From assembly GCF_047606305.1 (NCBI RefSeq), contig NZ_JASGER010000051.1, positions 6,787 to 70,786 of the forward strand: 64,000 nt of DNA, given 5' to 3'. The translations under genes and the position numbers were made by a program. Source of the DNA: Gordonia sp. (in: high G+C Gram-positive bacteria). GTDB taxonomy: Bacteria; Actinomycetota; Actinomycetes; Mycobacteriales; Mycobacteriaceae. Shown in pieces: positions 8,044 to 64,000 of this stretch. Position 1 is the first letter of the stretch. Every line of letters begins with the position of its first letter. Below the pieces are notes generated by a model that saw nothing but the letters and a program-made list of their open reading frames with translations, was not told the DNA's origin and made no database searches.

Positions 8044-9108
8044 TTAGAGCCTGTTCGTCTCGTCCGCTACGGTGCCGAGCAGATCCTCGACGAGGTCGGC
8101 AAGTGCGGCCAGACCGATGGTGCGCCCGGAGTCGTCGACGACGGCGGCGAGGTGGGAACTGGTCCGACGCATGTCGGTCATCGCGTCGTCGAGCATCGTG
8201 GTGGCCGTGAGCACGGGCAGGGGCCTGACGTCAGCGGGGCCGATGATGGTCGCCGGACCGCGCTCGTCGTCGGCGATTGCACCGAGAACGTCTTTGAGGT
8301 GCAGATAGCCGGTGAAGATTCCGCCGGGCGCCCGCACCGGGAACCGCGAGTAGCCGGTCTCGGCGACCGCCTCCTCGACGGCGGCCAGCGTCGGACCGTC
8401 GTGGCCGGGCTCGGTGTCGATCCAGCGGACCTTGGTGAGCGGAATCATGACGTCGGCGATGGTGCGCCCGACGCTGGCGAGCGCGCGGGTGAGGCGCTGA
8501 TGCTCCTCGTCGTCGATCAGGCCCTCGTCTCGGGAGTCGCTGATCATGACGGCGAGCTCGGTCTGCGACACGGTCGAGTCGAGCTCGTCGCGGGGGGTGA
8601 CGTGCAGAACCCGCAGGGCCAGATTGGCGAGAAGGTTGTAGAACGCCAGGATCGGTCGGGTCAGCCGCACGAACAACAGATGAGCCGGTACCAGGAGCAT
8701 CGCCGAGCGTTCCGGACCGGCGAGGGCGATGTTCTTCGGCACCATTTCGCCGAGAAGGATGTGGAGCACGACCACCAGCATCAGGGACACGGTGAAGCTG
8801 ATCGGGTGCAGCAGCGAGTGCGGCACCGACGCCCAATCGAGGGGCTGCTCGAGGATGTGGGCGATGGCGGGTTCGCCGACGCGGCCGAGCAGGATCGAGC
8901 AGATGGTGATGCCCAACTGGGCGCCGGCCAACATGATCGTCAGCCGCTCGGATGCGCGGATGACGGTCCGCGCCCGCGAGTTCCCGTCGTCGGCGAGGGC
9001 CTCGAGGCGGTCGCGGCGCGCCGAGATCAGGGAGAACTCGGCGGCGACGAAGAAGGCGTTGGCGGCCAACAGGGCGATGGTGAGCACCACTCCGACCCAG
9101 GCGTTCAT
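8044..9108 (-). CDS. CNNM/CBS (hemolysin-family) membrane protein (Rv1841c-like)
   Basis: ANAFFVAAEFSLISARR, GEMVPKN, CBS pair with YSRFPV. Confidence 0.92.
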   Translation of the reverse strand: MNAWVGVVLTIALLAANAFFVAAEFSLISARRDRLEALADDGNSRARTVIRASERLTIMLAGAQLGITICSILLGRVGEPAIAHILEQPLDWASVPHSLLHPISFTVSLMLVVVLHILLGEMVPKNIALAGPERSAMLLVPAHLLFVRLTRPILAFYNLLANLALRVLHVTPRDELDSTVSQTELAVMISDSRDEGLIDDEEHQRLTRALASVGRTIADVMIPLTKVRWIDTEPGHDGPTLAAVEEAVAETGYSRFPVRAPGGIFTGYLHLKDVLGAIADDERGPATIIGPADVRPLPVLTATTMLDDAMTDMRRTSSHLAAVVDDSGRTIGLAALADLVEDLLGTVADETNRL

Positions 9109-10541
9109 GAGCGGCCTCCCGACGCGGGCGTGGTGTGGGCGTCATCCGTCGGCGGCAGCGGCTGCAGGGACACCGTGTCGATCCGGCGGCCGTCCATCGC
9201 GGTGACGCGGGCGCGCCAGCGCTGCGTGGTCGTCGGGGCGCTGCGGGAGACGGGGCGCTCGGCGGACTCGTCCTCGTCGTCGCCGGTGCGGGCGAGGGAC
9301 TCCAGGTCGACCTCGTCGCCGACGGTGGGGATGCGGCCGAGGCGGAACATCACCAGGCCGCCGAGCGTGTCGTAGGCGCCCTCGGGCGCTCGCAGGCCGG
9401 TGGCCTCGTCGAGTTCGTCCAGCCGCAGCAGCCCCGAGCAGACGAACCCGTCGCCGTCGGCGGTGACCTCGTCGTTCTCGTCGTCGTGCTCGTCGGTGAC
9501 CGAGCCGACGATCTCCTCGATGACGTCCTCGGTGGTGACGATCCCGGCGGTGCCGCCGTATTCGTCGATGACGACGCAGATCTCCAGGCCGCCGGCGGCG
9601 AGTTGATGCACCACGGCGTCGCCGTCGAGGCTTGCCGGCACGGTGGCGACCGGCCACACCAGCGTGTCCAGGCGGGTTGTGCGCAGGTGGGCGTGCGGCA
9701 CGGAGAAGGCCTGCTTGATGTGGACGATGCCGATGAGGTTGTCCAGGTCGCCCTCGTGGCAGACGGGGAAGCGGCTGTGCCCGGTGTCGGCGGCCACCCG
9801 CACGAGGTCGTCGACGGTGTCCTCGGGTCCGAGGGTGGTGACGCGGACGCGGGGGGTCATCAGATCCTCGGCGGTCAGCTCGCCGAAGCGCAGCGAGCGG
9901 TCGACGAGGACGGCGGTGTCGGCGTCGATCGAGCCGTGTCGCGCCGAGTTGCGGACCAGCGAGGCGAGCTCTTGCGGTGAGCGGGCCGAGGCGAGCTCCT
10001 CGGCCGGCTCGACACCGAGCCGGCGGACCAACCAGTTGGCGGTCCCGTTGAGGCCGTTGATCGCGGGTCGGAACAGGGCCGAGAAACCGACCATCGGCGC
10101 GGCGGTGAACCGGGCGACGGCCAGGGGGAGCGAAATGGCGAGGTTCTTCGGGATCAGCTCGCCCAGGACCATCGACAGCGAGGTCGCGAGCACCAGTGCC
10201 AAGGTCGCCGAGAGCCAACCGTGCCAACTCGCCGGCACGCCGAGAGCGGTGAGCGCCGGGTTGATGAACCGGGCGAGCACCGGTTCGGCCAGGTAACCGG
10301 TGATCAGCGTCGTGATCGTGATACCGAGCTGGGCGCCGGACAGCTGGAAGGAGAGCGTCCGGTGCGCGCGTTCCACCTGCCGTGACCGCAGGTCGCCGCG
10401 GGTGGCGACATCGTCGGTGACCGTCGAGCGCTCGAGTGCGGTGAGGGAGAACTCGGCGGCGACGAACACCGCCGTGCCGACGGTCAGGGCGATGAATCCC
10501 ACCACTGCGGCGGTCGTCGCGGCTATCGAGGCCCAGTCCAC
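9105..10541 (-). CDS. CNNM/CBS/CorC_HlyC membrane protein (Rv1842c-like)
   Basis: FVAAEFSL, AQLGIT, GELIPKN, HSRFPV, DEYGGTAGIVTTEDVIEEIVG, YDTLGGL; GTG start chosen. Confidence 0.92.
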   Translation of the reverse strand: MDWASIAATTAAVVGFIALTVGTAVFVAAEFSLTALERSTVTDDVATRGDLRSRQVERAHRTLSFQLSGAQLGITITTLITGYLAEPVLARFINPALTALGVPASWHGWLSATLALVLATSLSMVLGELIPKNLAISLPLAVARFTAAPMVGFSALFRPAINGLNGTANWLVRRLGVEPAEELASARSPQELASLVRNSARHGSIDADTAVLVDRSLRFGELTAEDLMTPRVRVTTLGPEDTVDDLVRVAADTGHSRFPVCHEGDLDNLIGIVHIKQAFSVPHAHLRTTRLDTLVWPVATVPASLDGDAVVHQLAAGGLEICVVIDEYGGTAGIVTTEDVIEEIVGSVTDEHDDENDEVTADGDGFVCSGLLRLDELDEATGLRAPEGAYDTLGGLVMFRLGRIPTVGDEVDLESLARTGDDEDESAERPVSRSAPTTTQRWRARVTAMDGRRIDTVSLQPLPPTDDAHTTPASGGRS

Positions 10542-10548
10542 GGTGGCG

Positions 10549-11988
<1,440 letters not shown>

Positions 11989-13431
11989 TCAAGCGGTGAC
12001 TTCGGAGCGGTCACCGCTCCACAGGGTGTGGAAGCTGCCCTCGGCGTCGATCCGGCGGTAGGTGTGGGCGCCGAAGTAGTCGCGCAGCCCCTGGGTGAGG
12101 GCGGCGGGCAGGCGCTCGGCGCGCAGCGCGTCGTAGTACGACAGCGACGAGCCGAAGGCCGGCACCGGGATGCCCATCGAGGCGGCGGTTGCGACGACGC
12201 GGCGCCAGGAGTCGATCCCGGACTCGACGGCGTTGCGGAAGTACGGCGCGAGCAGCAGGCTCGGCAGCTCCGGGTTCTCGGCGTAGGCCTCGCGGATGCG
12301 GTTGAGGAACTGTGCCCGGATGATGCAGCCGCCGCGCCAGATCGTGGCGAGGGCGCCCGGGTCCACGTTCCAGCCGTACTCCTTGCTGCCGGCCGCGATC
12401 TGGTCGAAACCCTGCGCGTAGGCGACGACCTTCGATGCGTACAGCGCGGCCTTGATGTCCTCGATGAAGGCGGCTGCGTCGGTGGGGGCGGCGGCGAGGT
12501 CGCCGGCGGCCAGACCGGCGGCGGCGTCACGCTGGGCCCGCGAGCTCGAGAGAGCGCGCGCGAAGACGGCCTCGGCGATACCTGTCACCGGAATACCAAG
12601 GTCGAGCGCCGATTTCACAGTCCAGCGGCCGGTGCCCTTCTGGCCCGCCTCGTCGACGATCACGTCGACCAGCGGCTTGCCGGTCTTCGCGTCGACCTGG
12701 TCGAGGACCTCGGCGGTGATCTCGATCAGATAGCTGGCGAGTTCGGTGGAGTTCCAGTCCTTGAACACCTTGCCGATGTCGGCGACCGGCATGTCCAGGG
12801 CCTTGCGCATGAGGTCGTAGGCCTCGCCGATGAGCTGCATGTCGGCGTACTCGATGCCGTTGTGGACCATCTTGACGAAGTGACCGCTGCCGTCCGGGCC
12901 GATGTGGGTGCAGCAGGGCTCGCCGTCGACCTGTGCGGCGACCTTCTCCAGCATGGGGCCGACGGCCTTGTAGGAGTCGACCGGCCCGCCGGGCATGATG
13001 GCCGGCCCGAGCAGCGCGCCCTCTTCGCCGCCGGAGATGCCGGCGCCGATGAAGAGGAGTCCACGCTCGGCGAGGCTCTTCTCGCGGCGGATGGTATCGG
13101 TGTACAGCGCGTTGCCGCCGTCGATGATGATGTCGCCCGGCTCGAAGACCGCGGCCAACTCCTCGATCACCGAGTCGGTGGCGTCACCGGCCTGAACCAT
13201 GATCAGCGCCCGGCGCGGGCGCTCGAGCGCGGCGGCGAATTCGGCCATCGTCTCGGTGCGCACGAAGTCGCCGTCACCGCCGTGATCGGCGATCAGCGCG
13301 TCGGTCTTGGCGATCGAGCGGTTGTGCAGCGCGACGGTGTAGCCGTTGCGGGCGAAGTTGCGGGCGATGTTGGAGCCCATCACGGCGAGGCCGGTGACCC
13401 CGATCTGGGCAGAGGCGGAAGACGCAGTCAT
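11989..13431 (-). CDS. gndA: 6-phosphogluconate dehydrogenase, decarboxylating
   Basis: GLAVMGSN, GISGGEEGA, VKMVHNGIEY, QKGTGRW, WRGGCIIRA, RDYFGAHTY. Confidence 0.97.
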   Translation of the reverse strand: MTASSASAQIGVTGLAVMGSNIARNFARNGYTVALHNRSIAKTDALIADHGGDGDFVRTETMAEFAAALERPRRALIMVQAGDATDSVIEELAAVFEPGDIIIDGGNALYTDTIRREKSLAERGLLFIGAGISGGEEGALLGPAIMPGGPVDSYKAVGPMLEKVAAQVDGEPCCTHIGPDGSGHFVKMVHNGIEYADMQLIGEAYDLMRKALDMPVADIGKVFKDWNSTELASYLIEITAEVLDQVDAKTGKPLVDVIVDEAGQKGTGRWTVKSALDLGIPVTGIAEAVFARALSSSRAQRDAAAGLAAGDLAAAPTDAAAFIEDIKAALYASKVVAYAQGFDQIAAGSKEYGWNVDPGALATIWRGGCIIRAQFLNRIREAYAENPELPSLLLAPYFRNAVESGIDSWRRVVATAASMGIPVPAFGSSLSYYDALRAERLPAALTQGLRDYFGAHTYRRIDAEGSFHTLWSGDRSEVTA

Positions 13432-13440
13432 GCAGTCAGC

Positions 13441-14391
13441 TTAACCGCCGAAGAAACGGGACAGCTCGACGAGCCACGGGATCACCACGGCAAGGGTCGG
13501 AACGACGAGGATGGCGGCCGCCCCGGCATAGGCGGCGGCGGCGATCGTGGTCGAGTTGGGCGATGCGAGCCGGTTGATCCGGGCGACCGTCGTCGAGCCG
13601 CCGGCGGCGAGGGCGCCACGGGGCGCCGCGGAGTCGGAAACGGCGACGAGGGCGTGGGCCAGCGTCGACGGGCTGGTGCTGCGAACGGCCTGGTCGTCGG
13701 CGAGCGCCTCGGCGAGCAGCTCGACCGAGCCCAGGGCCGAGGAACTGCGCACGAAGCGCGGGAAGGCCGCCTGCAGGGCGATGAAGGCCTCCAGCACGAG
13801 GTCGTGCCGCGCACGCAGGTGGGCGCGCTCGTGGGCCAGGACCGCGCGCAATTCGGCATCGGACAGTCGCGCAACGGCGCCGTCGGTGACGATGACGCGC
13901 TGGCGTCGACCCGGCAGACAGTAGGCGAGGGGCTGATCGAGGGCCAGGCGTCGGACGTACCGCGCCCGCAGCGGGTGCCGGTCGCCGACGACGGGGTCGT
14001 CGAGGGAGGCGATCAGGTCGACCAGCTGGCGATGGGCGGCGCGACGGGACCGGGTGCGGAAGGCGACCCGGATCGTGGTGACCACCAGCCGTGCCCCGAC
14101 GAGGAGTGTGGCGGCGAAGGCGGCGACGCTGAACAACCAGAGGGGCAGGCCGAGGCGGTCGATCTGGTCGGCGATCCGTGCGCTCGGGGTGCCGGCGGTG
14201 CCCGGGCGCAGGAGGTTGGCGGCGATCGCCAGGCCGGCGCTGAAGGCGGAGAGGACGGCCGCGAGTGCGATCGCCTGCCAGAGGGTCATGGCGGCGCGGG
14301 GGGCGCGCATCGGCCACTGTGCGCTCGACAGCCAGGCCGGCACCGGGCCGACGAGCAGCAGGCACAGGAGGCCGAACGCGACGGCGGTCAC
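13441..14391 (-). CDS. blaR: M56-family zinc metalloprotease (BlaR-like, Rv1845c)
   Basis: HERAH (HExxH), several TM helices, coupled to blaI. Confidence 0.88.
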   Translation of the reverse strand: MTAVAFGLLCLLLVGPVPAWLSSAQWPMRAPRAAMTLWQAIALAAVLSAFSAGLAIAANLLRPGTAGTPSARIADQIDRLGLPLWLFSVAAFAATLLVGARLVVTTIRVAFRTRSRRAAHRQLVDLIASLDDPVVGDRHPLRARYVRRLALDQPLAYCLPGRRQRVIVTDGAVARLSDAELRAVLAHERAHLRARHDLVLEAFIALQAAFPRFVRSSSALGSVELLAEALADDQAVRSTSPSTLAHALVAVSDSAAPRGALAAGGSTTVARINRLASPNSTTIAAAAYAGAAAILVVPTLAVVIPWLVELSRFFGG

Positions 14392-14804
14392 GTCGGATCG
14401 CTGCGCTTCTCGTCGCGGGGGCCGGACTGGGCGGCGTCGAGGTCGTCGAGGGCGGCCCGCAGAGCAGCGGCCTCGTCGGCACTCACCTGCCCGACGAAGG
14501 AGACGAGGGCGGCCTCGCGCGATCCGGGGGCGTCCGCCGAATCGAGCACGTCGACCATCAGGCTGGCGACCAGATCCTCGCGGTGGTGCGCGGCCTGGTA
14601 CTTGTGGGCGCGGTCGTCGCGGATCTGGGTGACCAGCCCCTTCTTGGCGAGGCGCTGCAGGACGGTCATCACCGTCGTGTAGGCGAGGTTGCGCGAGCGG
14701 TTCAGCGACTCGTGCACCTGGCGCACGGTCTGCGGCACGCTCGAGTCCCAGAGCGTGTCCATGACCGCCCGTTCGAGATCGCCCAACGCATTCACCTTTT
14801 TCAT
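14388..14804 (-). CDS. blaI: BlaI/MecI/CopY-family repressor
   Basis: LGDLERAVMDTLW, LAYTTVMTVLQRLAKKGLV; start at MKKVN. Confidence 0.93.
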   Translation of the reverse strand: MKKVNALGDLERAVMDTLWDSSVPQTVRQVHESLNRSRNLAYTTVMTVLQRLAKKGLVTQIRDDRAHKYQAAHHREDLVASLMVDVLDSADAPGSREAALVSFVGQVSADEAAALRAALDDLDAAQSGPRDEKRSDPT

Positions 14805-14910
14805 CTTACCGATTCGTGCCCGCGTGCTGGTGAGGGGAGTGATACGTGCGTCGATGGTGGTGGTCACTGGGTCTCCTACCGGTTGATCGAGACTTCTTCG
14901 CCCCAAGGAT

Positions 14911-14939
14911 TTGACAACTAGGTAAGGCTAGCCTACATT
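14911..14939 (+). promoter_or_regulatory. Sigma-A-type promoter
   Basis: TTGACA (14911-14916), 17-bp spacer, TACATT (14934-14939). Confidence 0.85.
14918..14936. promoter_or_regulatory. IdeR/DtxR iron box
   Basis: CTAGGTAAGGCTAGCCTAC, 16/19 match to TWAGGTWAGSCTWACCTWA; overlaps promoter spacer and -10. Confidence 0.85.
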
Positions 14940-14946
14940 ACTAATC

Positions 14947-15040
14947 ACGCGGATCGCGCGAGTGTCCTGAGGGCTGCAGAGACCCCCGATCCTCGGCACG
15001 GCAGGCCCCACGTTGTAGGAGAACGTGGGGCCTGCCGCTG
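14947..15040 (+). ncRNA. Iron-repressed small RNA, probable MrsI (ncRv11846) homologue
   Basis: Promoter plus IdeR box upstream, strong hairpin at 3' end, no credible ORF, same blaI-thioesterase intergenic position as mycobacterial MrsI; ends estimated. Confidence 0.68.
14999..15037 (+). terminator. Intrinsic terminator hairpin
   Basis: CGGCAGGCCCCACGTT-GTAGGAG-AACGTGGGGCCTGCCG, perfect 16-bp stem. Confidence 0.8.
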
Positions 15041-15079
15041 TATCCGGGGCAGGAATCGGCGTGGGGTTAACCTGGCGGT

Positions 15080-15499
15080 ATGAGCGATCACACCGTAGAA
15101 CCCGATCCGTCCCGTCCCAAGGGGTTGGACGCCGCCCTCGGAATGACGATCTCGGAGGCGGGCCCGGACGGCGTCGTGGCCCAGATCCCGATCACCGGGA
15201 CCCATCACCAACCGTTCGGCATCGTTCACGGCGGTGTCTATTGCGCGATGGCCGAGAGCGTGGCGAGCATCTCCGGATTCCTGTGGCTCGAGCACACCGG
15301 GATCGGCGGGACCGCCGTCGGGGTCAACAACAGCACGGACTTCATCAAGTCCGTGTCCGAGGGGACGATCGTGGCCCGATCGGTGCCGGTGCACCGCGGC
15401 AAGCGCCAGCAGCTCTGGCAGGTCGACATGACGCTGCCCGACGGCACGTTGCTCGCCCAGGGGCGCGTGCGACTGCAGAACGTGCCGCTGCCGTCCTGA
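15080..15499 (+). CDS. PaaI-family hotdog thioesterase (Rv1847-like)
   Basis: HQPFGIVHGGVYCAMAES, HRGKRQQLWQV; leaderless TAACCT-N6-ATG. Confidence 0.92.
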   Translation: MSDHTVEPDPSRPKGLDAALGMTISEAGPDGVVAQIPITGTHHQPFGIVHGGVYCAMAESVASISGFLWLEHTGIGGTAVGVNNSTDFIKSVSEGTIVARSVPVHRGKRQQLWQVDMTLPDGTLLAQGRVRLQNVPLPS

Positions 15500-53763: not shown

Positions 53764-54303
53764 ATGGCTGTGAACCTCGACCCGCTGGCCGGCGACGAAT
53801 GCGTCTGCCCGTGCCATCGTGACCCGTCAATCCACCACGTGATGGCCTGCTGTGCCGATTGTGCCGACTGCGACACCCGCGTGAAGACCGCGTCTTTGGA
53901 CACCCACAAGCCGGCGCGGTGCGGAGGATTCCGGATCGGTCGGATCGCGCTGCGGGCCGACGCCGGAGTGTGCGTCCTGGCCGGCATAGCGCTCATCGTC
54001 ACCGGTTTCGTGCACGAGGTCATGCCCGTCGCCGCGCATCTGGTGATCGGCATCATCCTCGCCCTCTGGGGATTGGGTCTCTGGCTCGCACCGTCCCGGT
54101 GGCCGTTGCGGGCCGTGTTGGCAGTCGTCGTGCTCGTCAACCTCATCGCCACCATCGCACTGATCATCGTCGGTCTGATGGCGTCGGCCGACGGCACCGT
54201 GAAGCCGTTGGCGCTGATCGCCGCGGTGATCGTCATCGCCATCACCGCGTGGGAGTGGGTCGGCCTGCGCCGGACGCAGGGCGGCGTCGCTGCTGCTGTC
54301 TAG
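53764..54303 (+). CDS. Membrane protein with N-terminal Cys/His-rich domain
   Basis: CVCPCH...HH..CC..C..C followed by about 4 TM helices; TAGGCT-N6-ATG. Confidence 0.65.
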   Translation: MAVNLDPLAGDECVCPCHRDPSIHHVMACCADCADCDTRVKTASLDTHKPARCGGFRIGRIALRADAGVCVLAGIALIVTGFVHEVMPVAAHLVIGIILALWGLGLWLAPSRWPLRAVLAVVVLVNLIATIALIIVGLMASADGTVKPLALIAAVIVIAITAWEWVGLRRTQGGVAAAV

Positions 54304-55298
54304 CTCTTCGCCGGGCGCTTGGTCAGGTAGAACTTCGCCGCCTCGACGATCGACTCGGTGGTCGGCCGGGGCTGCCAGCCGAGTTCATCCACCGCCTTGG
54401 AGTGGTCCATCCGGGGCATCACGTACATCAGGCGCACCGAGGTGGGCGTCAGGTAGGGGTCCTCGCGTTTGAGCCGGGCGATCAGCGAGGCCATGACCGC
54501 CATCCGGGTGAGTTTGCCGCGCGATACCGCCTTGCGCGGCGGTTCGACGCCCACCGCTCCACAAGCGGTCGCGAAGATCTCTTTCGGCGACAGGAAGCGC
54601 TCGGCCACGATGTAGCGCTCGCCGACGCGGCCCTTCTCGCCGGCGAGGGTCATCGCCCGCGCGGCGTCGCCGATGCCGACCACCTCGGCGCCGACGCCGT
54701 CGAGGTAGAACGGCATCTTGCCGCGGACCGCCGCTTTGACCATGCCGCCGTGGGGCGTCGGCAGATAGTCGCCCTCCCCGTACGTGTTGGCCACGCACAT
54801 CGCCACGGCGGGCAGACCGCGAGTGTGGCAGTACTCCATCACCAGGTCCTCGGCCGCGACCCGCGTCCGTGCGTACTGCCCACCTTTGCGCAGCCAGTTG
54901 TTGCGCAGCTCCTCGGTGGCGAGCCCGGACTCGGGGATGCCGATGGTGACCACCGAACTGGTGAACACGAACCTATCCAGGCCGGCCTCGGCCGCGACGT
55001 CCAGCACACCGCGCAGGCCTTCGACATTGGTCCGCCACATGGGGGTGGGATCGCGCAGCCACGGCCGCGCATCCACGACGCAGTAGAAGACGACGTCGCA
55101 GCCGTCGATTGCGCGACGGATCGAGTCCACGTCGAAGATGTCGCCGTGCACCACCTCGACGTCGTCGAGTCCGTCGATGCCGCGAGTGTCGCTCGTCGCG
55201 CGGACGAGCGCGCGGACGGGTTTGCCCTGTTCGACCAGGTCGCGCACCACGTGGGCGCCGAGGAATCCACTCGCGCCGATCACCAGATTCTTGCTCAC
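54300..55298 (-). CDS. NAD-dependent epimerase/dehydratase (DFR-like extended SDR)
   Basis: GASGFLG, FTSS, YARTR, ANTYGEGD. Confidence 0.9.
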   Translation of the reverse strand: MSKNLVIGASGFLGAHVVRDLVEQGKPVRALVRATSDTRGIDGLDDVEVVHGDIFDVDSIRRAIDGCDVVFYCVVDARPWLRDPTPMWRTNVEGLRGVLDVAAEAGLDRFVFTSSVVTIGIPESGLATEELRNNWLRKGGQYARTRVAAEDLVMEYCHTRGLPAVAMCVANTYGEGDYLPTPHGGMVKAAVRGKMPFYLDGVGAEVVGIGDAARAMTLAGEKGRVGERYIVAERFLSPKEIFATACGAVGVEPPRKAVSRGKLTRMAVMASLIARLKREDPYLTPTSVRLMYVMPRMDHSKAVDELGWQPRPTTESIVEAAKFYLTKRPAKS

Positions 55299-56152
55299 GC
55301 GTTCTCCAGACGCTCGTGGGCCACTTCTTCAAACACGGTCATCGAGGCGCGGTAGGGCTCCGTCTCCCGCGGCCAGGCGACGAGGAAGTCGGTAAAACCG
55401 AGCTCGCGGGTCCGGCCGACCACCTCGTCGAAGGCCGTCAGACCCTCGAGCGGGTTCAGCGGGCTCATCGCGCCGGACACGTAGCGGGGAAAGTCGGGCT
55501 TTGCCCCGTCGAGCGTTGCCTCGAGAACATCGGCACTGCGCCGCAGGCCGTCGATCCACGACTCGAAGTCGTCGGTCACGGTGCCCGGCGTGATCCAACC
55601 GTCGCCGTGCTGGGCGGCGAAGCGCACCGACCGCGGTCCGGTCCCGGCGAGCAGGAGCGGGACGCGGTCGCGCACGGAGCCGGCGGGCAGTCTCATGTCG
55701 CGGGCGCGGTAGTACTCGCCGTCGAAGTCGACGTGGTCGTCGCGGAGCACCAGGTCGAGCAGCGTCGTGAACTCCTGGAACCGGTCGACGGTTTGCCTCG
55801 GCGTCATCGGTTCCTGACCGAGTACGCCGTTGTCCGGGGAACCGCCGGAGCCGAGACCGGCCAAGAACCTGTCACCGGAGATGTCGACGAGCGTCTCGAT
55901 CTCCCGGGACAGCGGCACCGGATGGCGGAAGTTGGGCGAGATGACGAATGATCCGAGGCACATCCGGTCGGTGACCGTCGCCGCTGCCGTGAGCGTGGGG
56001 AGGCAGGAGAACCACTGCGAATCGGGGAGGCCGCCCCACACCACGTGATCGAAGGTCCAGGCGTGGTCGAAACCCATCTCCTCGGCGCGGCGCCACCTGC
56101 GCGACGAGGACGCCCACGGTTCGTCGGGAAGGATGAACACTCCGAAGCGCAT
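55295..56152 (-). CDS. LLM-class flavin-dependent oxidoreductase
   Basis: GFDHAWTFDH, SPNFRHP, AGLGSG, AGTGP; TAGGAT-N6-ATG. Confidence 0.88.
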   Translation of the reverse strand: MRFGVFILPDEPWASSSRRWRRAEEMGFDHAWTFDHVVWGGLPDSQWFSCLPTLTAAATVTDRMCLGSFVISPNFRHPVPLSREIETLVDISGDRFLAGLGSGGSPDNGVLGQEPMTPRQTVDRFQEFTTLLDLVLRDDHVDFDGEYYRARDMRLPAGSVRDRVPLLLAGTGPRSVRFAAQHGDGWITPGTVTDDFESWIDGLRRSADVLEATLDGAKPDFPRYVSGAMSPLNPLEGLTAFDEVVGRTRELGFTDFLVAWPRETEPYRASMTVFEEVAHERLENA

Positions 56153-56213
56153 GCGGCCATCCTAGGGAAGCCCGCACTAGTATGTGATCGCGGACACGTC
56201 CGAAAGGAACGCC

Positions 56214-56852
56214 ATGAACGTGATTGGACATCGCCGATCGATCGGCATCGTTGTCGGCCTGGGCGCCGTCGCCCTGCTCGGGGCGGGCTGTGCCAGCGAG
56301 ACGGCGACGGCTCCGACGTCGTCGCAAGCGGGCGGGTACGACGGCGGCCCGTCGAGCGCGTACTACTCGGCGGCCTCGTCGTCGGCACCCGCGTGGCCGG
56401 CTCGCCCGGTCCGCCTGAAGGCTGCCGACGGCACCCCGGTCATCCTGATCGGACCGATCGCCGCCAAGTACACCCACGCGACGCCCGCCCAGAAGAAGGA
56501 CCTCGGCCTTCCGCTGAGCGGCGATCACAACTCGGGTAAACGCGCCAACGGCCTGGTGTTCCAACAGTTCAAGGGTGGTGTCATCACCGCCCGCAACGGT
56601 CATGCGGGCACGCCGGCCTACATCACCTGGGGCAAGATCCGCGACGCCTGGAATGTCGAGCGGGCGCCGGACGGCACGCCGTCGGTCAACGGCAAGAACG
56701 GCTCGGCCGGTCCGCTCGGCATGGCGACCAGCGACGAGATCACCAAGGGTGATCTGAAGGAGTCGACGTTCGCGCACGGCACGATTACGTACAACACGGT
56801 CACCCACAAGGTCACCGTGAAGGTCAACGGCAAGGTCGTCCCGACCAAGTAG
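56214..56852 (+). CDS. Lipoprotein with LGFP-like repeats
   Basis: Lipobox LGAG-C; DLGLPLS..QQFKGGVI and GPLGMATSDE..TFAHGTI repeats; AAGGA RBS. Confidence 0.8.
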   Translation: MNVIGHRRSIGIVVGLGAVALLGAGCASETATAPTSSQAGGYDGGPSSAYYSAASSSAPAWPARPVRLKAADGTPVILIGPIAAKYTHATPAQKKDLGLPLSGDHNSGKRANGLVFQQFKGGVITARNGHAGTPAYITWGKIRDAWNVERAPDGTPSVNGKNGSAGPLGMATSDEITKGDLKESTFAHGTITYNTVTHKVTVKVNGKVVPTK

Positions 56853-56859
56853 CCCGGTC

Positions 56860-58209
56860 TCAGGCCAGCGCGGACAGCACTTCCCGCGCGGCCGCGCGAC
56901 CGGAACGCACGGCGCCCTCCATGTAGCCGTTCCATTCGACGGCGTACTCGGCACCGGCCCAGTGGATGGCGGCGATGGGTTCGCGCAGCGCCGGTCCGAA
57001 GCCGGTCCAGACTCCGGGGGCGAAGTGTGCGCCGTAGCAACCGCGGGTGAACTCTTCGGTGCTCCAGTCCTTCTCGACGTAGGACATCGGTGAGGTCGCA
57101 CGATCGCCGAAGTACCGGGTGAAACAACCGATGACGTCGTCCCGGCGCTGTACGTCGTCCTGACGTTGCCACCGCAGCGCATCGGCACCCTCGACGAAGC
57201 CGAGGAGGACGCCGATCGAACCGTCCGGTGGCGACACGTCGAAGGTCACCTTGACCGGGCCGCGATCGGAGACGGCCTGTCCGTTCAGGCCGTCGTCGCG
57301 CCAGAACGGCGTCGAATAGGACGCGAAGCACTTGGCCACGGATCCGGCGGGCAGGCGCTGGGTCAGCTGGTCGCGCCACGGTGGCAGGGCCGGTTCGTAT
57401 TCGATTCGACCAGCCAAGGTCGGGGGGATGGCGACGATGACGCGACGTGCTGTGAAGGTGTTCCCGTCACGAAGTGTCACAGTGACGGAATCCGTGGTCC
57501 GGCTGATCGTGCGCACGGGGGAGCGGAACCGTATGTCGAGGTCCGCGGCGAGTCGTTCGGCAACCAAGACGGACCCGCCGACGACGCGGTCCTGCTGCGC
57601 GCCGCGATCGACGGAGACCAGGGTCTCCAGGTCGGCATTGGCCGCGGTGTAGAACAGCGCATGCAACAAGGAGAAGTCGGAGGCGTCGGCGGCATAGACG
57701 GCCTCCGCGGTGATGCGGAAGTAGGCGCGACCGGCCTCGGTGCGCAGATTCCGTCGGATCCACGTCTCGTAGGTCTGCCCATCGAGGCGTGCCGCGTGTC
57801 GGTGCTCCCACGGCCGTGCCGGATCGACGCCGTCGGAGAGCCGTTTGAACCGCGTCAATCCCTGGAACAGGTCGGCCAGAGCGAACGGATTCAACTTCGG
57901 AATCGCGCCCTTCTTGCCGGACATGCGCGAGCGCCGGCCGCCCAGCTCGACGAGGAGTTGGCCCGCATCGTTCCACGTGCGGAAGCTCTCCAGACCCAGC
58001 CGGACGACGAGATCGTGCATCTCGGTGTGGCCCTCGCCGATCCATGTTCCGCCCAGCTCGATCGGCTGACCGTCGATCACGCCGCCCTCGAGCCGACCGC
58101 CGACACGGTCGCGCGCCTCGAGCACGACGACCGAGGAACCGGCCTCGGTCAGCGCATGCGCGGCGCTCAAGCCGGCCAACCCGGCACCGATGACGAGAAC
58201 ATCCGCCAT
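56860..58209 (-). CDS. Flavin monoamine oxidase family protein
   Basis: GAGLAGL, EARDRVGGR, ELGGTWIG, WAGAE, GYMEGAVRSG. Confidence 0.93.
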   Translation of the reverse strand: MADVLVIGAGLAGLSAAHALTEAGSSVVVLEARDRVGGRLEGGVIDGQPIELGGTWIGEGHTEMHDLVVRLGLESFRTWNDAGQLLVELGGRRSRMSGKKGAIPKLNPFALADLFQGLTRFKRLSDGVDPARPWEHRHAARLDGQTYETWIRRNLRTEAGRAYFRITAEAVYAADASDFSLLHALFYTAANADLETLVSVDRGAQQDRVVGGSVLVAERLAADLDIRFRSPVRTISRTTDSVTVTLRDGNTFTARRVIVAIPPTLAGRIEYEPALPPWRDQLTQRLPAGSVAKCFASYSTPFWRDDGLNGQAVSDRGPVKVTFDVSPPDGSIGVLLGFVEGADALRWQRQDDVQRRDDVIGCFTRYFGDRATSPMSYVEKDWSTEEFTRGCYGAHFAPGVWTGFGPALREPIAAIHWAGAEYAVEWNGYMEGAVRSGRAAAREVLSALA

Positions 58210-58487
58210 GTCGCCCACACTCCGATCTGATTCCGTTGAACCGAGCGTAGGTGTCTCGATGTGGAGGTGCATCTAATCGGTCTGATAGCCGACTATCGTC
58301 ACAGTGACGTTTCCGGGTGGGGTGGCTGGAACCGGGGAAGTCACCGAATCCATTGTCCTGCAGTAACTTTCGATGCCGTCCGCGATATTCCGAGTCGTTC
58401 GAGGCGCGTAATCATTGATCGGTCGGGAGTGCGTGCACCGATTGCCGGACGTGCGTTGCGACGGCGCGCACGAAAAGGCGGTGAGCC

Positions 58488-58543
58488 GGCTGAGTGTCGG
58501 TCAACGGCGACATGTGGGCTGAGTGTCGGTCAACGGCGACATG
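58488..58543 (+). repeat. Tandem 27-bp direct repeat (period 29)
   Basis: GGCTGAGTGTCGGTCAACGGCGACATG at 58488-58514 and 58517-58543, identical. Confidence 0.92.
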
Positions 58544-58578
58544 CGGCGACAAACCCTGTTCGTGCAGCACGGTCATAT

Positions 58579-58606
58579 TGTGCCGATAAGATACATTATG
58601 TCAACT
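58579..58606 (+). other. dif-like XerC/XerD recombination site
   Basis: TGTGCCGATAA-GATACA-TTATGTCAACT, 11-6-11 layout; matches E. coli dif GGTGCGCATAA-N6-TTATGTTAAAT and the recalled actinobacterial GCCGATAA...TTATGTCAA core. Confidence 0.86.
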
Positions 58607-58628
58607 AGGCCGGCGGACTATCGCCCCA

Positions 58629-58961
58629 TCACCGCGCAAGACCGAGGAAGGCCATCAACGCCCGTTCCAGTTCGACGGTCTGCTCGCTGGTGAGGCGCCC
58701 GACCCGCTCGTCCACATTCGAACGCCGCACCGCGGTCAGCTTGTCGATCATGATGTCGCTGTCCCGCTCGAGGCCGGAGATGAGCTCGCCGCCCCCGGCT
58801 ATCCGGATGCGGATCAGCGGCGCGTCGACCAGGGTGGTCGTGAGCGGCGCGACGATCACCGACCCGGTGGCGCTGAACGCGTCATCCTGGACGATGACTG
58901 CCGGCCGCGGCTTGGTCGCATACACCCCACCGGCCACCGTCCAGATCTCGCCCCGATTCAC
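58629..58961 (-). CDS. mazF: PemK/MazF-family toxin (endoribonuclease)
   Basis: RGEIW, KPRPAVIVQ, VIVAPLT, SDIMIDKL..VRR; GTGA overlap with antitoxin. Confidence 0.92.
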   Translation of the reverse strand: MNRGEIWTVAGGVYATKPRPAVIVQDDAFSATGSVIVAPLTTTLVDAPLIRIRIAGGGELISGLERDSDIMIDKLTAVRRSNVDERVGRLTSEQTVELERALMAFLGLAR

Positions 58962-59167
58962 TCCCCGTCGTCCCAGTGCGCGGCGATCGACTCCACGAAG
59001 TCCTGCTCGTCGCGTTCAGTCTCTGAGCCCGCGACAATCGCGGACTGTCGGCGTGCCTGTGCGGCAAAGGCTTCGGTTCGCACATCGGGCACCCACATCT
59101 GCAGCGGACGCAAACCGCGCTCGCGCATCCGCCGCCGGTACTCCCCGACCCGATCCTTGACTGCCAT
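58958..59167 (-). CDS. MazE-like antitoxin (DUF3018-type)
   Basis: RVGEYRRRMRERGLRPLQMWVPDVR, acidic tail; directly upstream of toxin. Confidence 0.87.
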   Translation of the reverse strand: MAVKDRVGEYRRRMRERGLRPLQMWVPDVRTEAFAAQARRQSAIVAGSETERDEQDFVESIAAHWDDGE

Positions 59168-59176
59168 GTCACCGAT

Positions 59177-59205
59177 GTTACATGTAACGATGGGTTACAT
59201 GTAAC
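59177..59205. promoter_or_regulatory. Paired TA operator palindromes
   Basis: GTTACATGTAAC at 59177-59188 and 59194-59205; first overlaps minus-strand TAACAT-N7-ATG. Confidence 0.82.
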
Positions 59206-59322
59206 GCCCCGTGTGTTCGAACTGAATTCGGCGGACGCGATTCTTACCCCGACAAATCGGATCAAACGTGGTTACGGTGGAGTCAACCCCCGACCGTCGG
59301 GGTACGACAGAGGGAGATCATC

Positions 59323-59628
59323 ATGACTGCCATTGAAGCGACCACCGAGATTCTCGCCCGCTCGACCACGACCACCACCGTCGGCTGGTTCGGTTACATC
59401 GTCATCGGCGCGCTCGCGGGCTGGCTCGCCGGCAAGCTCGTCAAGGGTGGCGGGCAGGGCATCCTGCTGAACATCATCATCGGTATCGTCGGCGCCCTGC
59501 TGGGCGGCTGGATCCTCAGCTGGTTCGTCGACACCGCCTCGGGCGGCTGGTGGTTCACCTTCTTCACCGCGCTGGCCGGTTCGGTGATCCTGTTGTGGCT
59601 GCTGAGCCTGGTGACCAGTAAGCGCTGA
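59323..59628 (+). CDS. GlsB/YeaQ/YmgE-family stress membrane protein
   Basis: IGALAGWLAGKL, NIIIGIVGALLGG, ALAGSVILL. Confidence 0.9.
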   Translation: MTAIEATTEILARSTTTTTVGWFGYIVIGALAGWLAGKLVKGGGQGILLNIIIGIVGALLGGWILSWFVDTASGGWWFTFFTALAGSVILLWLLSLVTSKR

Positions 59629-59641
59629 CATCACGACTCCT

Positions 59642-59680
59642 CGAAACCGCCCATCGGATCTGATCTGATGGGCGGTTTCG
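59642..59680. terminator. Bidirectional terminator hairpin
   Basis: CGAAACCGCCCATCGGATC-T-GATCTGATGGGCGGTTTCG between convergent genes. Confidence 0.82.
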
Positions 59681-59688
59681 CTATACGG

Positions 59689-60072
59689 CTACTTCACCCA
59701 TTCGACGAGTTGGACGATGATTCCGTTCGGATCGGCGAATTGGCAGTATCGCTCGCCCCACGGTTCGGTCGTCGGCCTGGTGACCAGCTCGGCACCGTCC
59801 GCCTGCATCGCGGAGTAGGCCGAATCGACGTCGTCGACGACGAAGGCCAGCAGCAGTCCCTCCCCCGCGTCGCCCGCCCGGTGCGGCGGCTTGAAGCTGG
59901 GCAGGCCGGTCCGCAGAAAGATGATGTTCTCCCCCGCGCGGTCCGGATGCTCCAGGGATACGAATCCGTCGTCGGCCATGACCTCCCGGTAGCCGAGGTG
60001 GCGCCTGAAGAAGTCGGCCGACGACACGGGGTCGGCCACGTTGAGCGACACGGCCGTGGCGTTGATCTGCAT
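59689..60072 (-). CDS. VOC/glyoxalase/bleomycin-resistance-family protein
   Basis: SLNVAD...SADFF, LAFVVDDVD, TTEPWGERYCQFADPNG; AAGGAG RBS. Confidence 0.9.
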   Translation of the reverse strand: MQINATAVSLNVADPVSSADFFRRHLGYREVMADDGFVSLEHPDRAGENIIFLRTGLPSFKPPHRAGDAGEGLLLAFVVDDVDSAYSAMQADGAELVTRPTTEPWGERYCQFADPNGIIVQLVEWVK

Positions 60073-60084
60073 GGTGCTCCTTCG

Positions 60085-60147
60085 CGTATCTGGTACGGTT
60101 ATTATTACCCGTACGGCATACGGTAACACCTAATCGTACAGAATACG
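60085..60147. promoter_or_regulatory. Three phased CGTA-N5-TACG operators
   Basis: CGTATCTGGTACG 60085, CGTACGGCATACG 60110, CGTACAGAATACG 60135; exact 25-bp period. Confidence 0.8.
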
Positions 60148-60156
60148 AGAAAGCGG

Positions 60157-60891
60157 ATGATGGACACCATCGACCTTCTGTGGCGCAACGAGGTGCCCGC
60201 GAAACGGCGCGGTCGCCCTCCCCGGTTCTCGACCGATCAGGTCGTCGCCGCGGCGGTAGCCGTCGCGGATCGGGACGGATCCGGTTTCACACTGCGCGAT
60301 GTCGCCGCCGAGCTGGGGATCCCAGTGATGTCCCTCTACTCCTACGTCGACGGCCGTGAACAGTTGCTCGCGCTGATGGCCGACGACGTGCGTGCCGAGA
60401 TGCCCCGTGGCGAGCTGTCCGGTGATTGGCGCACCCGGCTGTCCGTGCTCGCCAACGACGACCTGCGTCTCTTCCTCGACCACCCTTGGCTGGCCGAACT
60501 CGAATCCGAGCGGGAGATCCTCGGTCCCGGCACCCTCGCCAAATACGAGCATGAACTGACCGTCGTCGATCCCCTCGACCTTCCGGACGTCGAGAAGGAC
60601 GCGGTCCTCACCCTCATCCACGACTTCGCCCGAGCGAACGCGCGTTCCATGGCTGCAGCACGCGTCGAGCGCGTCGAGGAGGACCCCCACGAGTGGTGGG
60701 AGCGTGAGGGCGCCAAGCTTGCGGTGCTCGGAATCGAGGCACGGTTCCCGTTGGCCACGCGAGTCGGCAGCGCCGCCGGCGAGGCCCAGGGTGCTGCACG
60801 GGATGCCGACGCCGCCTATCGATTCGGCCTCGACCTGATCCTGGACGGCATCGCCGCCCGCCTCGCCGCCTCCCCAACCACCTCAGACTGA
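60157..60891 (+). CDS. TetR/AcrR-family regulator with TetR_C-type C-terminus
   Basis: RGRPP, FTLRDVAAELGIPVMSLYSYV, FGLDLILDG. Confidence 0.92.
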   Translation: MMDTIDLLWRNEVPAKRRGRPPRFSTDQVVAAAVAVADRDGSGFTLRDVAAELGIPVMSLYSYVDGREQLLALMADDVRAEMPRGELSGDWRTRLSVLANDDLRLFLDHPWLAELESEREILGPGTLAKYEHELTVVDPLDLPDVEKDAVLTLIHDFARANARSMAAARVERVEEDPHEWWEREGAKLAVLGIEARFPLATRVGSAAGEAQGAARDADAAYRFGLDLILDGIAARLAASPTTSD

Positions 60892-60900
60892 TAGGTCCCC

Positions 60901-63087
60901 ATGTCCACTCCCCCCGTCCACCCGGCCGACTCGCACGACCTCATCCGCGTCGTGGGCGCCCGCGTGAACAACCTGCGCGACGTCAGCGTCGACCTCCCCA
61001 AGCGCCGCCTGACGGTATTCACCGGAGTCTCGGGGTCGGGCAAGAGCTCACTGGTGTTCGGCACCATCACCGACGTCAACGCGATGCTGCGGATCCTGTT
61101 CAGCCGATTGTCGACGCCGTACATCGGGGCGTCCAACGCCTTTTCGTTCAACGTCCCGTCCGTCGAGGGCTCCGGCGAAGCGGAGACGGCCAGTGGCAAG
61201 AAGACGTCGAAGACGTTCACCGTGCTCGGCGGCATGTGCCCGCGGTGCGAGGGCCTGGGCGCCGTCGCCGATATGGACCTGGACCAGCTGTACGACGACG
61301 CCAAGTCCTTGAACGAGGGCGCGCTCACCGTCCCCGGCTTCACCCCCGACGGTTGGTACGGGCGCACCTACTCCAAGAGCGGCTACTTCGACCCGGACAA
61401 GCCGATCAAGGACTTCACCGCCGCCGAGCTGGACGCGCTCCTGCACAAGGAACCCACTCGGATCAAGGTTGACGGGATCAACGTGACCTACGAAGGCCTG
61501 ATCCCGCGGATCCAGAAGTCGATGCTCGCCAAGGACATCGACTCGGTGCAGCCGCACATCCGGGCCTTCCTCGAACGGGCCGTCACCCAGACCACCTGCC
61601 CGGAGTGTGACGGCACCCGGTTGGCCGAGCCTGCCCGCACGGCGACGATCGCCGGGGTGAGCATCGCCGATGTGTGCCGGTACCAGATCACCGACGTCGC
61701 ACAGTGGCTCCGCACGATCGACGACCCGGCCGTCGCGCCCCTGATGGAGAGTCTGCGGGCGGCGGTCGACTCCTTCGTCGAGATCGGACTCGGCTACCTC
61801 AACCTGGAGCGCCCCACCGGGACGCTCTCCGGCGGCGAGGCCCAGCGCATCAAGATGATCCGGCACCTGGGTTCGTCGCTGACTGACATCACCTATGTCT
61901 TCGACGAGCCGACGGTCGGACTCCACCCCCACGACATCGCGCGCATGAACGATCTGCTGATCCGCTTGCGGGACAAGGGCAACACCGTCCTGGTGGTGGA
62001 GCACAAGCCCGAGGTCATCGCCATCGCCGACCACATCGTCGACCTGGGGCCGCGGGCGGGCTCGAACGGCGGACAGATCTGCTACGAGGGCGACATCGCG
62101 GGCCTGCGGGGCGCCGACACCCTCACCGGGCGACATCTGCACGACCGGGCGACGCTGAAGGACACCGTGCGGACGCCGACCGGGGCGCTCGAGGTGCGTG
62201 GTGCGGAGGAAAACAACCTGCGCGGCGTCGACGTCGACATCCCGCTGGGGGTCCTCGTAGCGATCACCGGCGTGGCCGGTTCCGGCAAGAGCTCGCTGAT
62301 CCATGGCTCGGTCTCCGGGCGCGACGGGGTGATCGCGATCGACCAGACGGCGATCCGCGGCTCCCGGCGCAGCAATCCGGCGACGTACACCGGTCTGCTC
62401 GATCCCATTCGCAAGGCCTTCGCCAAGGAGAACGGGGTCAAGCCGTCCCTCTTCAGCGCGAACTCCGAGGGCGCCTGCCCGACCTGCAAGGGGGCCGGGG
62501 TCATCTACACCGACCTGGTGACGATGGCCGGCGTAACGACGACGTGCGAGGACTGCGACGGCAAGCGATTCAGCCCCGATGTCCTGCACTACCGACTGGG
62601 CGGGCAGGACATCAGCGACGTCCTCGCCATGCCGGTCGAGCGGGCACGCGGGTTCTTCGGCGACGGGCCGGCCCGCACACCGGCCGCGGCGAAGATCCTG
62701 GCCCGCCTGGCCGACGTGGGCCTCGGCTACATCACCCTCGGGCAGCCGTTGACGACGCTGTCCGGCGGCGAGCGCCAACGGCTCAAGCTCGCCACGGCCA
62801 TGGCTGACAAGGCGCAGGTGTACGTCCTGGACGAACCCACCACCGGCCTGCACCTGGCGGATGTGCAACAGCTCCTCGGCATGCTCGACGGTCTCGTCGA
62901 GGCCGGGAAGTCGGTGATCGTGATCGAGCACCATCAGGCGGTGATGGCGCACGCCGACTGGGTGATCGACCTGGGTCCGGGTGCCGGTCATGATGGCGGA
63001 CGCGTGGTCTTCGAGGGCACGCCCCGGGCGATGGTGGACGCCGCGCAGACGGTGACCGGTCGTCACCTGGCCGATTACGTCGCGTAG
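60901..63087 (+). CDS. Class II UvrA-like (DrrC-type) ABC ATPase with apparent internal in-frame deletion
   Basis: Two Walker A (GVSGSGKS, GVAGSGKS), two LSGGE, DEPT Walker B, CxxC pairs; FGTI joined directly to TDVNAML. Confidence 0.88.
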   Translation: MSTPPVHPADSHDLIRVVGARVNNLRDVSVDLPKRRLTVFTGVSGSGKSSLVFGTITDVNAMLRILFSRLSTPYIGASNAFSFNVPSVEGSGEAETASGKKTSKTFTVLGGMCPRCEGLGAVADMDLDQLYDDAKSLNEGALTVPGFTPDGWYGRTYSKSGYFDPDKPIKDFTAAELDALLHKEPTRIKVDGINVTYEGLIPRIQKSMLAKDIDSVQPHIRAFLERAVTQTTCPECDGTRLAEPARTATIAGVSIADVCRYQITDVAQWLRTIDDPAVAPLMESLRAAVDSFVEIGLGYLNLERPTGTLSGGEAQRIKMIRHLGSSLTDITYVFDEPTVGLHPHDIARMNDLLIRLRDKGNTVLVVEHKPEVIAIADHIVDLGPRAGSNGGQICYEGDIAGLRGADTLTGRHLHDRATLKDTVRTPTGALEVRGAEENNLRGVDVDIPLGVLVAITGVAGSGKSSLIHGSVSGRDGVIAIDQTAIRGSRRSNPATYTGLLDPIRKAFAKENGVKPSLFSANSEGACPTCKGAGVIYTDLVTMAGVTTTCEDCDGKRFSPDVLHYRLGGQDISDVLAMPVERARGFFGDGPARTPAAAKILARLADVGLGYITLGQPLTTLSGGERQRLKLATAMADKAQVYVLDEPTTGLHLADVQQLLGMLDGLVEAGKSVIVIEHHQAVMAHADWVIDLGPGAGHDGGRVVFEGTPRAMVDAAQTVTGRHLADYVA

Positions 63088-63091
63088 CCGA

Positions 63092-64000
63092 TCAGCGCGC
63101 GCCCGCGGCGACCGGTGAATCCGCGTGGACCAGGATCCGGAAGTCCTGGAGGTCCACCCGCCGCAGCTGGTGGATGAACTGGGTCGCAAACCCCGGGTAC
63201 ATCGTGGCGTTGAAGCCGTCGTCGGTCAGGTACCAGCTCTGGCAGCCCGAGTTCCACGTCGTCCGCTTCAACCGGCGCTGGATGTCGGCGTTGAACGCCG
63301 CCTGTGCCTGTTCGCGCACCTCCAGCGCCTTCCAGCCGCCCCGCTCGAGCATCCGGATAGCACCGGTGATGAAGTCGATCTGTGCCTCGAGGTACACCAG
63401 CGCCGAGTTGTGGCCGGGACCGGAATTGGGGCCGAAGGTGAAGTAGAGGTTCGGGTAGCCGGCGGCGGCCACGCTGCGATAGGCCTGCGCTCCCCCGCGC
63501 CACTGGGTCGCCAACTCGCGACCCCCGACGCCCGTCACCGGATATGGCAGTCCCTGCTTGCCGACCTCGAATCCGGTGGCGAACACGATGCAATCGACCT
63601 GGTGCTCGATCCCCTCCACCGTCCGGATCCCGTCGGGGGCGATCCGCGCGATCGGCCAGGTGACCAGCTTGCAGTTGTCGGCCTGCAGCGCCGGGTAGTA
63701 GTCACTGGTCATCAGCAAGCGCTTACAGCCGGCCGAGAAGTCCGGGGTGAGCTGTCGACGCAGCCAGGGGTCCCGGACCTGCAGCCGCAGGTTCAGCTTG
63801 GCGACGGCCTCGACGACACGTGTGAGCGGCGTGTCCCACACGACGCCCAATGCCATCGACTCGTGGCCGAGATACCACGCGGCGCGTGCCAGCCGCTGCG
63901 CTCCCGGAACGGCGCGGAACACGCCCCTGGTGAACTCACCCGTCTGTGGATTCACCCGCGGCAGCACCCAACCCGGAGTCCGCTGGAACACCTTCACCGA
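63092..64000 (-). CDS. Flavin-containing monooxygenase (BVMO-like), 5' part outside window
   Basis: VFQRTPGWVLPR, CKRLLMTSDYY, VFATGF, FGPNSG, WNSGCQSWY. Confidence 0.9.
   Translation of the reverse strand, partial: SVKVFQRTPGWVLPRVNPQTGEFTRGVFRAVPGAQRLARAAWYLGHESMALGVVWDTPLTRVVEAVAKLNLRLQVRDPWLRRQLTPDFSAGCKRLLMTSDYYPALQADNCKLVTWPIARIAPDGIRTVEGIEHQVDCIVFATGFEVGKQGLPYPVTGVGGRELATQWRGGAQAYRSVAAAGYPNLYFTFGPNSGPGHNSALVYLEAQIDFITGAIRMLERGGWKALEVREQAQAAFNADIQRRLKRTTWNSGCQSWYLTDDGFNATMYPGFATQFIHQLRRVDLQDFRILVHADSPVAAGAR

Follow-up and report, generated by a model that had tools for sequence, protein, structure and literature searches.

The 28-bp sequence TGTGCCGATAAGATACATTATGTCAACT, read directly on the plus strand at positions 58579–58606 of the window, is the chromosomal XerC/XerD dif site of a Gordonia and marks the terminus region of its chromosome, with a probability that we put at about 0.95. 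The window is the whole 64,000-nucleotide stretch of DNA that was analyzed, corresponding to positions 6787–70786 of contig C51 in a 3.20-Mb assembly (127 contigs, 69.8% G+C, estimated completeness of 99%). A first-pass annotation of the window had proposed the same identity for the site, and this call was correct, the site being an ordinary feature of a well-known type. The assignment is supported by the uniqueness of the site in the genome, its conservation in every related genome searched, its distance from dnaA in relatives, synteny with a complete genome, the strand switch of a polar word and the presence of Xer and FtsK genes. The wording of that annotation had implied a Mycobacterium as the host and needs to be corrected, as the host is a Gordonia within the order Mycobacteriales and the synteny that bears on the site is with Gordonia.

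The site was present on the plus strand exactly as it had been described, with the 11-6-11 layout TGTGCCGATAA-GATACA-TTATGTCAACT. The inner ends of the two arms are palindromic (ATAA and TTAT), giving dyad symmetry with the 6-bp center in between. The parts of the site are as follows:

58579–58589, plus strand: left (XerC-type) arm, TGTGCCGATAA, in which positions 4–11 (GCCGATAA) are conserved and positions 1–3 vary among species
58590–58595, plus strand: central (strand-exchange) region of 6 bp, GATACA, as is typical for Gordonia
58596–58606, plus strand: right (XerD-type) arm, TTATGTCAACT, with nearly invariant TTATGT-C-AA-G/C-T

The assignment of XerC to the left arm and XerD to the right arm is predicted by analogy with the dif sites of E. 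coli and mycobacteria (10.1101/758037). The 28-mer lies close to the right end of a 356-bp noncoding gap (58273–58628). The gap had been called AT-richer, in agreement with its G+C content of 58.7% compared to 69.7% for the window; the dif site itself has a G+C content of 35.7%. Two genes border the gap:

56860–58272, minus strand: flavin-containing amine oxidase (PF01593, E 9e-80), with its 5′ end facing the dif gap
58629–58961, minus strand: PemK/MazF-type toxin (PF02452, E 1e-20), with its stop codon 22 bp from the XerD arm

The occurrence of the site was assessed within the window and across the genome. With up to three mismatches allowed, the 28-mer occurs once in the window, and a match to it was found in none of 100 dinucleotide-preserving shuffles of the window. 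A degenerate search pattern for dif, NNNNCCGATAANNNNNNTTATGTNAANT, used with up to two mismatches, matched the 3.2-Mb assembly at the window site and nowhere else. The sites of 30 relatives, without that of the window, were compiled into a position weight matrix, on which the window dif scored 55.0 bits, compared to 2.7 bits for the runner-up place in the genome. The single-copy check that had been suggested for the site therefore returned one dif in the 99%-complete, 127-contig assembly, a count that covers the assembled contigs, with sequence in assembly gaps outside its scope. Neither the pattern nor the matrix search detected a second dif-like site marking an IMEX in the contig or in the rest of the assembly. 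Around dif, there were no XDS-like arrays of single XerD or XerC arms, and a pair of DnaA boxes bracketing dif was not found. The core of the XerD arm occurs twice in the genome, with 1.4 occurrences expected, and the XerC core is under-represented.

The dif pattern is present in all 41 related genomes, which represent 17 genera (24 congeneric genomes, with the remainder from 16 other genera of the order), and the reversed control pattern gave about three matches across all those genomes. Information content per column was calculated from 33 related sites anchored on the 28-mer. Columns 4–11 carry 1.7–2.0 bits and columns 15–26 carry 1.1–2.0 bits, and columns 1–3 carry 0.3–0.4 bits; such variability of the outermost left-arm bases is usual for the XerC side. 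High information was also found at columns 4, 5 and 15–17, which the search pattern had left free, including 1.5–1.7 bits for the ACA at the end of the central region (columns 15–17). The 30-base flanks of dif average 0.18 and 0.34 bits in the same 33 sites, so that conservation ends at the site edges. Because the information is confined to the site and the flanks are low, selection acts on exactly these 28 bases, whichever genes adjoin them. The center is GATACA in most congeneric genomes, and TGTACA, TCGACA and similar sequences occur in the other genera of the order.

The decisive test for dif in the window's own DNA is the strand switch of the word GGGGGAG. An unguided k-mer search for strand-skewed words was performed on the 400 kb around the dif site of G009, a complete Gordonia genome, in which GGGGGAG occurs 96 times on the leading strand and once on the lagging strand; CGGGGGAG and GCGGGGGA were likewise strongly strand-skewed. 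The same words are known as AIMS ('architecture imparting sequence') in the form of the octamers G(A/T/C)GGGGGA and (T/C)GGGGGAG, which have served to locate dif in Corynebacterium (PMC3022926). In C51, all 16 copies of GGGGGAG to the left of dif are on the plus strand and all 10 copies to the right are on the minus strand, the latter run extending to the contig end. The published corynebacterial octamers are distributed 24:0 to the left and 0:15 to the right of dif. The switch takes place within a 2.3-kb interval of the window (57517–59860), inside which dif (58579) is located, and the two sides within the window can be described as follows:

1–58578, plus strand: end of one replichore, with 15 of 15 in-window copies of GGGGGAG on the plus strand, towards dif, the last at 57517–57523
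58607–64000, minus strand: end of the other replichore, with four of four in-window copies on the minus strand, towards dif, the first at 59860–59866

The window total of 19 copies compares to 17.9 expected, so the word is not over-represented, and strand polarity is its mark. Other contigs are about 90% uniform in the orientation of the word (809 versus 81), and a clean convergent switch was found on no other contig of the assembly, C51 being the sole one. The corresponding switch interval in G009 (1,839,247–1,845,574; 6.3 kb) also encloses its dif site.

Polarity of the word was also inspected on individual contigs. The largest contig, C47 (120.5 kb), is mixed, with ten plus-strand and six minus-strand copies interleaved, unlike nearly all contigs, and also encodes a tyrosine integrase of phage type (open frame 82233–83549). 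Rearrangement, a foreign origin, an element or a binning or assembly chimera may account for this contig. On the 22-kb contig C122, which contains dnaA (8901–10244, minus strand), all five copies of GGGGGAG (9780–15269) are on the minus strand, opposite to the expectation if oriC is in the dnaA–dnaN gap; with only these five copies on a single strand, no divergent switch was seen on C122.

The position of dif relative to dnaA was measured as the shorter arc in eight chromosome-scale relatives, the window's genome being in 127 contigs. The sites in these relatives are 164–179° from dnaA:

G007: dif 172° from dnaA
G009 (complete Gordonia genome): dif 177° from dnaA
G010: dif copy at 3.15 Mb, 179° from dnaA
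G040: dif 176° from dnaA (183.5° by the long way round)
G014: dif 164° from dnaA
G028: dif about 172° from dnaA
G041 (nearest Gordonia MAG, with an identical 28-mer): dif 176° from dnaA
G042 (nearest Gordonia MAG): dif 177° from dnaA

On either side of dif, contig C51 aligns collinearly with the G009 terminus region, with 73–88% nucleotide identity. Positions 770–60958 of C51 correspond to 1,936,076–1,868,839 of G009, and positions 66074–95719 correspond to 1,836,870–1,808,506, and relative to these segments dif has the same orientation in both genomes. The claim that the window holds the replication terminus was supported, as GGGGGAG converges on the site and C51 shares synteny with the terminus region of G009. 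Because dif marks the replichore junction, the window therefore spans the replication-terminus region.

The collinearity is interrupted only in the few kilobases right at dif. Compared to window positions 54172–59288, G009 has approximately 30 kb of DNA of lower G+C content (66–68%; G009:C1:1,838,357–1,868,839, loci L045–L047) that is absent here. An LGFP-repeat gene (window 56184–56852) is inverted in G009 and lies on the opposite side of dif. Variation is concentrated in the DNA immediately around dif.

Genes for the recombination machinery were identified on other contigs by profile search. XerD is encoded at C9:5533–6414 with a score of 345 bits, above the TIGR02225 equivalog cutoff. A XerC-like paralogue at C105:31633–32520 has XerC as its best family with 309 bits, which is below the strict TIGR02224 cutoff of 335 and above the NF001399 subfamily cutoff. 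The catalytic Arg, His-x-x-Arg, His and Tyr motifs appear to be present in this protein, as judged by eye from the unaligned sequence. An FtsK gamma domain is encoded on C8 (86 bits).

From the E. coli and mycobacterial systems, we infer arm-by-arm binding, steering of FtsK by GGGGGAG and recombination at the site. XerC would occupy the left arm and XerD the right one; in a dimeric chromosome, two dif sites would synapse. Exchange of strands by XerC and XerD across the 6-bp center would then resolve chromosome dimers at cell division. Septal FtsK would translocate DNA in a direction set by GGGGGAG as a KOPS/AIMS-type word pointing to dif from both sides, and FtsK reaching XerCD at dif would activate recombination. 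That FtsK reads GGGGGAG in this group is assumed by analogy.

A GC-skew switch had been predicted at 58.6 kb, and in this fragmented assembly the skew signal is too faint and noisy to settle the prediction. The skew of C51 falls from +0.029 to the left of dif to +0.008 to the right, giving a drop but not an inversion in this weak-skew genome. The mean absolute skew of contigs of at least 30 kb is 0.015, and 30 kb is short against such noise. In the 400 kb of G009, cumulative GC skew reaches a broad maximum at approximately 1.86–1.87 Mb and then declines. With dif at 1,839,701, this maximum is approximately 20–30 kb from the site, and it would map to around 52–54 kb of the window. Gene orientation in C51, derived with a simple third-position G+C gene caller, did not show a clear flip at dif.

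The skew bears on an alternative in which dif is genuine and the replication forks meet elsewhere, either tens of kilobases or more away or outside the window. Such a displacement would fit both the lack of inversion at dif in C51 and the offset of the G009 maximum, which is part of a broad plateau. No fork-trap protein is known for this group, and neither Tus/Ter nor MatP/matS is known in it. The polar word, which records long-term replichore polarity, nevertheless flips within 2.3 kb here and within 6.3 kb in G009, and even the G009 skew maximum would still fall inside the window. Termination is placed near dif in published analyses (Hendrickson and Lawrence 2007 via PMC3022926; Kono 2011, PMC3025954). 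We therefore regard a terminus away from dif as unlikely, and the only live caveat is that the forks may meet some tens of kilobases from the site.

A more distant alternative is that the site is not the chromosome's dif, and is instead an attachment or secondary dif-like site of a Xer-exploiting element (IMEX) or a plasmid cer-like site. An IMEX would have two flanking sites, leaving the chromosome without its own dif, yet no dif-like site other than that of the window occurs in this assembly, which is 99% complete. The contig is also chromosomal and shares synteny with the G009 terminus, the GATACA center is typical of the genus and the polar word converges on the site. We consider these points to outweigh the variation of dif-adjacent DNA among species (the approximately 30 kb of lower-G+C DNA in G009 is missing here), the location of a toxin gene 22 bp from the site and the situation in G008, G010 and G013, and an origin from an element or plasmid is highly improbable. 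In those three genomes, several extra dif-like sites with differing centers were found, many of them on small contigs, and these are probably involved in plasmid multimer resolution or belong to Xer-exploiting elements.

The genes that border the chromosomal dif were also considered. The closest public relatives of the amine oxidase are encoded in activated-sludge Gordonia MAGs and named Gordonia species, which places the host in this genus. A link between the oxidase and dif was rejected, with dif nearby in just 2 of 58 loci encoding an oxidase relative; because of this low frequency, the neighbors of dif are taken to be incidental. The amine oxidase is outside the dif system and forms a boundary only, and mazF is treated as a boundary gene with no sign of belonging to the system. 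No blastn match to mazF was found in the 400 kb around the G009 dif. In a search for an antitoxin, the minus-strand ORFs upstream of mazF (58882–59265 and 59272–59634) gave no Pfam match, and the first also gave no NCBIfam match. The suggestion that the 28-mer arose as a palindrome by chance or serves as a local operator (amine oxidase promoter or mazF terminator region) has in its favor that the 28-mer is upstream of the oxidase gene and just past mazF, but it can be dismissed because conservation is independent of the flanking genes, the site being kept in 41 of 41 genomes whatever the neighbors, with the oxidase so rarely adjacent, mazF unmatched around the G009 dif and no shuffle of the window matching the 28-mer.

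The site was compared to those of known systems. Mycobacterial dif sites share the 11-6-11 layout and the GCCGATAA and TTATGTCAA arms. The sites predicted for M. smegmatis (AGTACCGATAAGCTACATTATGTCAACT) and M. tuberculosis (TAAGCCGATAAGCGACATTATGTCAAGT) (Kono et al. 2011, PMC3025954 supplement) are identical to the window site at 25 of 28 and 23 of 28 positions, respectively. The right arm of the M. smegmatis site is identical to that of the window, whereas the centers are GCTACA in M. smegmatis and GCGACA in M. tuberculosis compared to GATACA here, the left arms of the mycobacterial and Gordonia sites differ in their three outer bases and the host is different. The gene set of XerC, XerD and FtsK is common to mycobacteria and this Gordonia. 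Very similar sites were predicted for Nocardia, Rhodococcus and Saccharopolyspora (Kono 2011 supplement, PMC3025954). A Frankia alni seed, CACGCCGATAATGCACATTATGTCAAGT, recovered dif in 66 of 66 actinobacterial genomes, and dif was thereby predicted in 2011 for all 66 sequenced Actinobacteria (PMC3025954). The arms GCCGATAA and TTATGTCAA of this seed are shared with the window site, while its center is TGCACA instead of GATACA and its outer left-arm bases differ. Corynebacterium has the same G-rich polar word with the same convergence on dif (PMC3022926; Hendrickson and Lawrence method); here, in contrast, the genome is a Gordonia assembly in fragments, from which the word singles out one contig with a convergent switch.

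The dif site of E. coli is likewise a single-copy 28-bp sequence opposite oriC, composed of a XerC arm, a 6-bp center and a XerD arm. E. coli likewise has G-rich polar words pointing at dif, two paralogous tyrosine recombinases and FtsK-gamma. The E. coli site is GGTGCGCATAATGTATATTATGTTAAAT, to which the window site is approximately 20/28 identical. The polar word is GGGGGAG here and GGGNAGGG in E. coli.

With dif identified, the terminus of this uncultured Gordonia, whose genome is in fragments, can be assigned to a single contig and the replichore junction is fixed, which can be used for scaffolding, for growth-rate estimates from peak-to-trough read depth and for reading gene strand bias. 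The corynebacterial word GGGGGAG is also valid in Gordonia, where it can point to the terminus of a draft assembly even if GC skew gives no answer. Mycobacterial dif works in XerCD-dependent Xer-cise cassette excision (10.1101/758037; PMC4789726), and the 28-mer could similarly serve marker-free 'Xer-cise' gene deletion in Gordonia. Current understanding is unchanged by these results, as dif, XerCD, FtsK and polar words belong to textbook knowledge.

The DNA adjoining dif contains repeats. Window positions 58488–58543, 35 bp from the XerC arm, are occupied by a perfect tandem duplication of 29 bp (100% match; 1.9 copies of the unit GGCTGAGTGTCGGTCAACGGCGACATGTG) that is unique in the genome. 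A related motif, GAGTGGGCGGTCAA, is present in four copies at the corresponding place in the nearest Gordonia MAG (L056), beside an identical dif. The 29-bp duplication could have arisen by slippage, or it could serve the amine-oxidase gene as an operator array. It is doubtful, and in our estimate very unlikely, that the few kilobases around dif, with this duplication on the XerC side and mazF on the XerD side, are Xer-linked, either through accessory protein-binding repeats (cf. plasmid cer/psi) or as captured cargo whose second site has eroded; if true, such repeats or cargo would be unusual for a chromosomal dif. Pfam searches of the ORFs adjoining dif in locus L030 gave no matches. A conserved 21-bp element, CTGCATATTGCATCAGATGCA (palindrome TGCATC-A-GATGCA), is absent from this window and occurs at a fixed distance of 6 bp past the XerD arm in 9 of 33 related dif loci (L013, L015, L016, L018, L020, L021, L027, L030 and L031). 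These nine loci include variant-center dif sites in two genomes.
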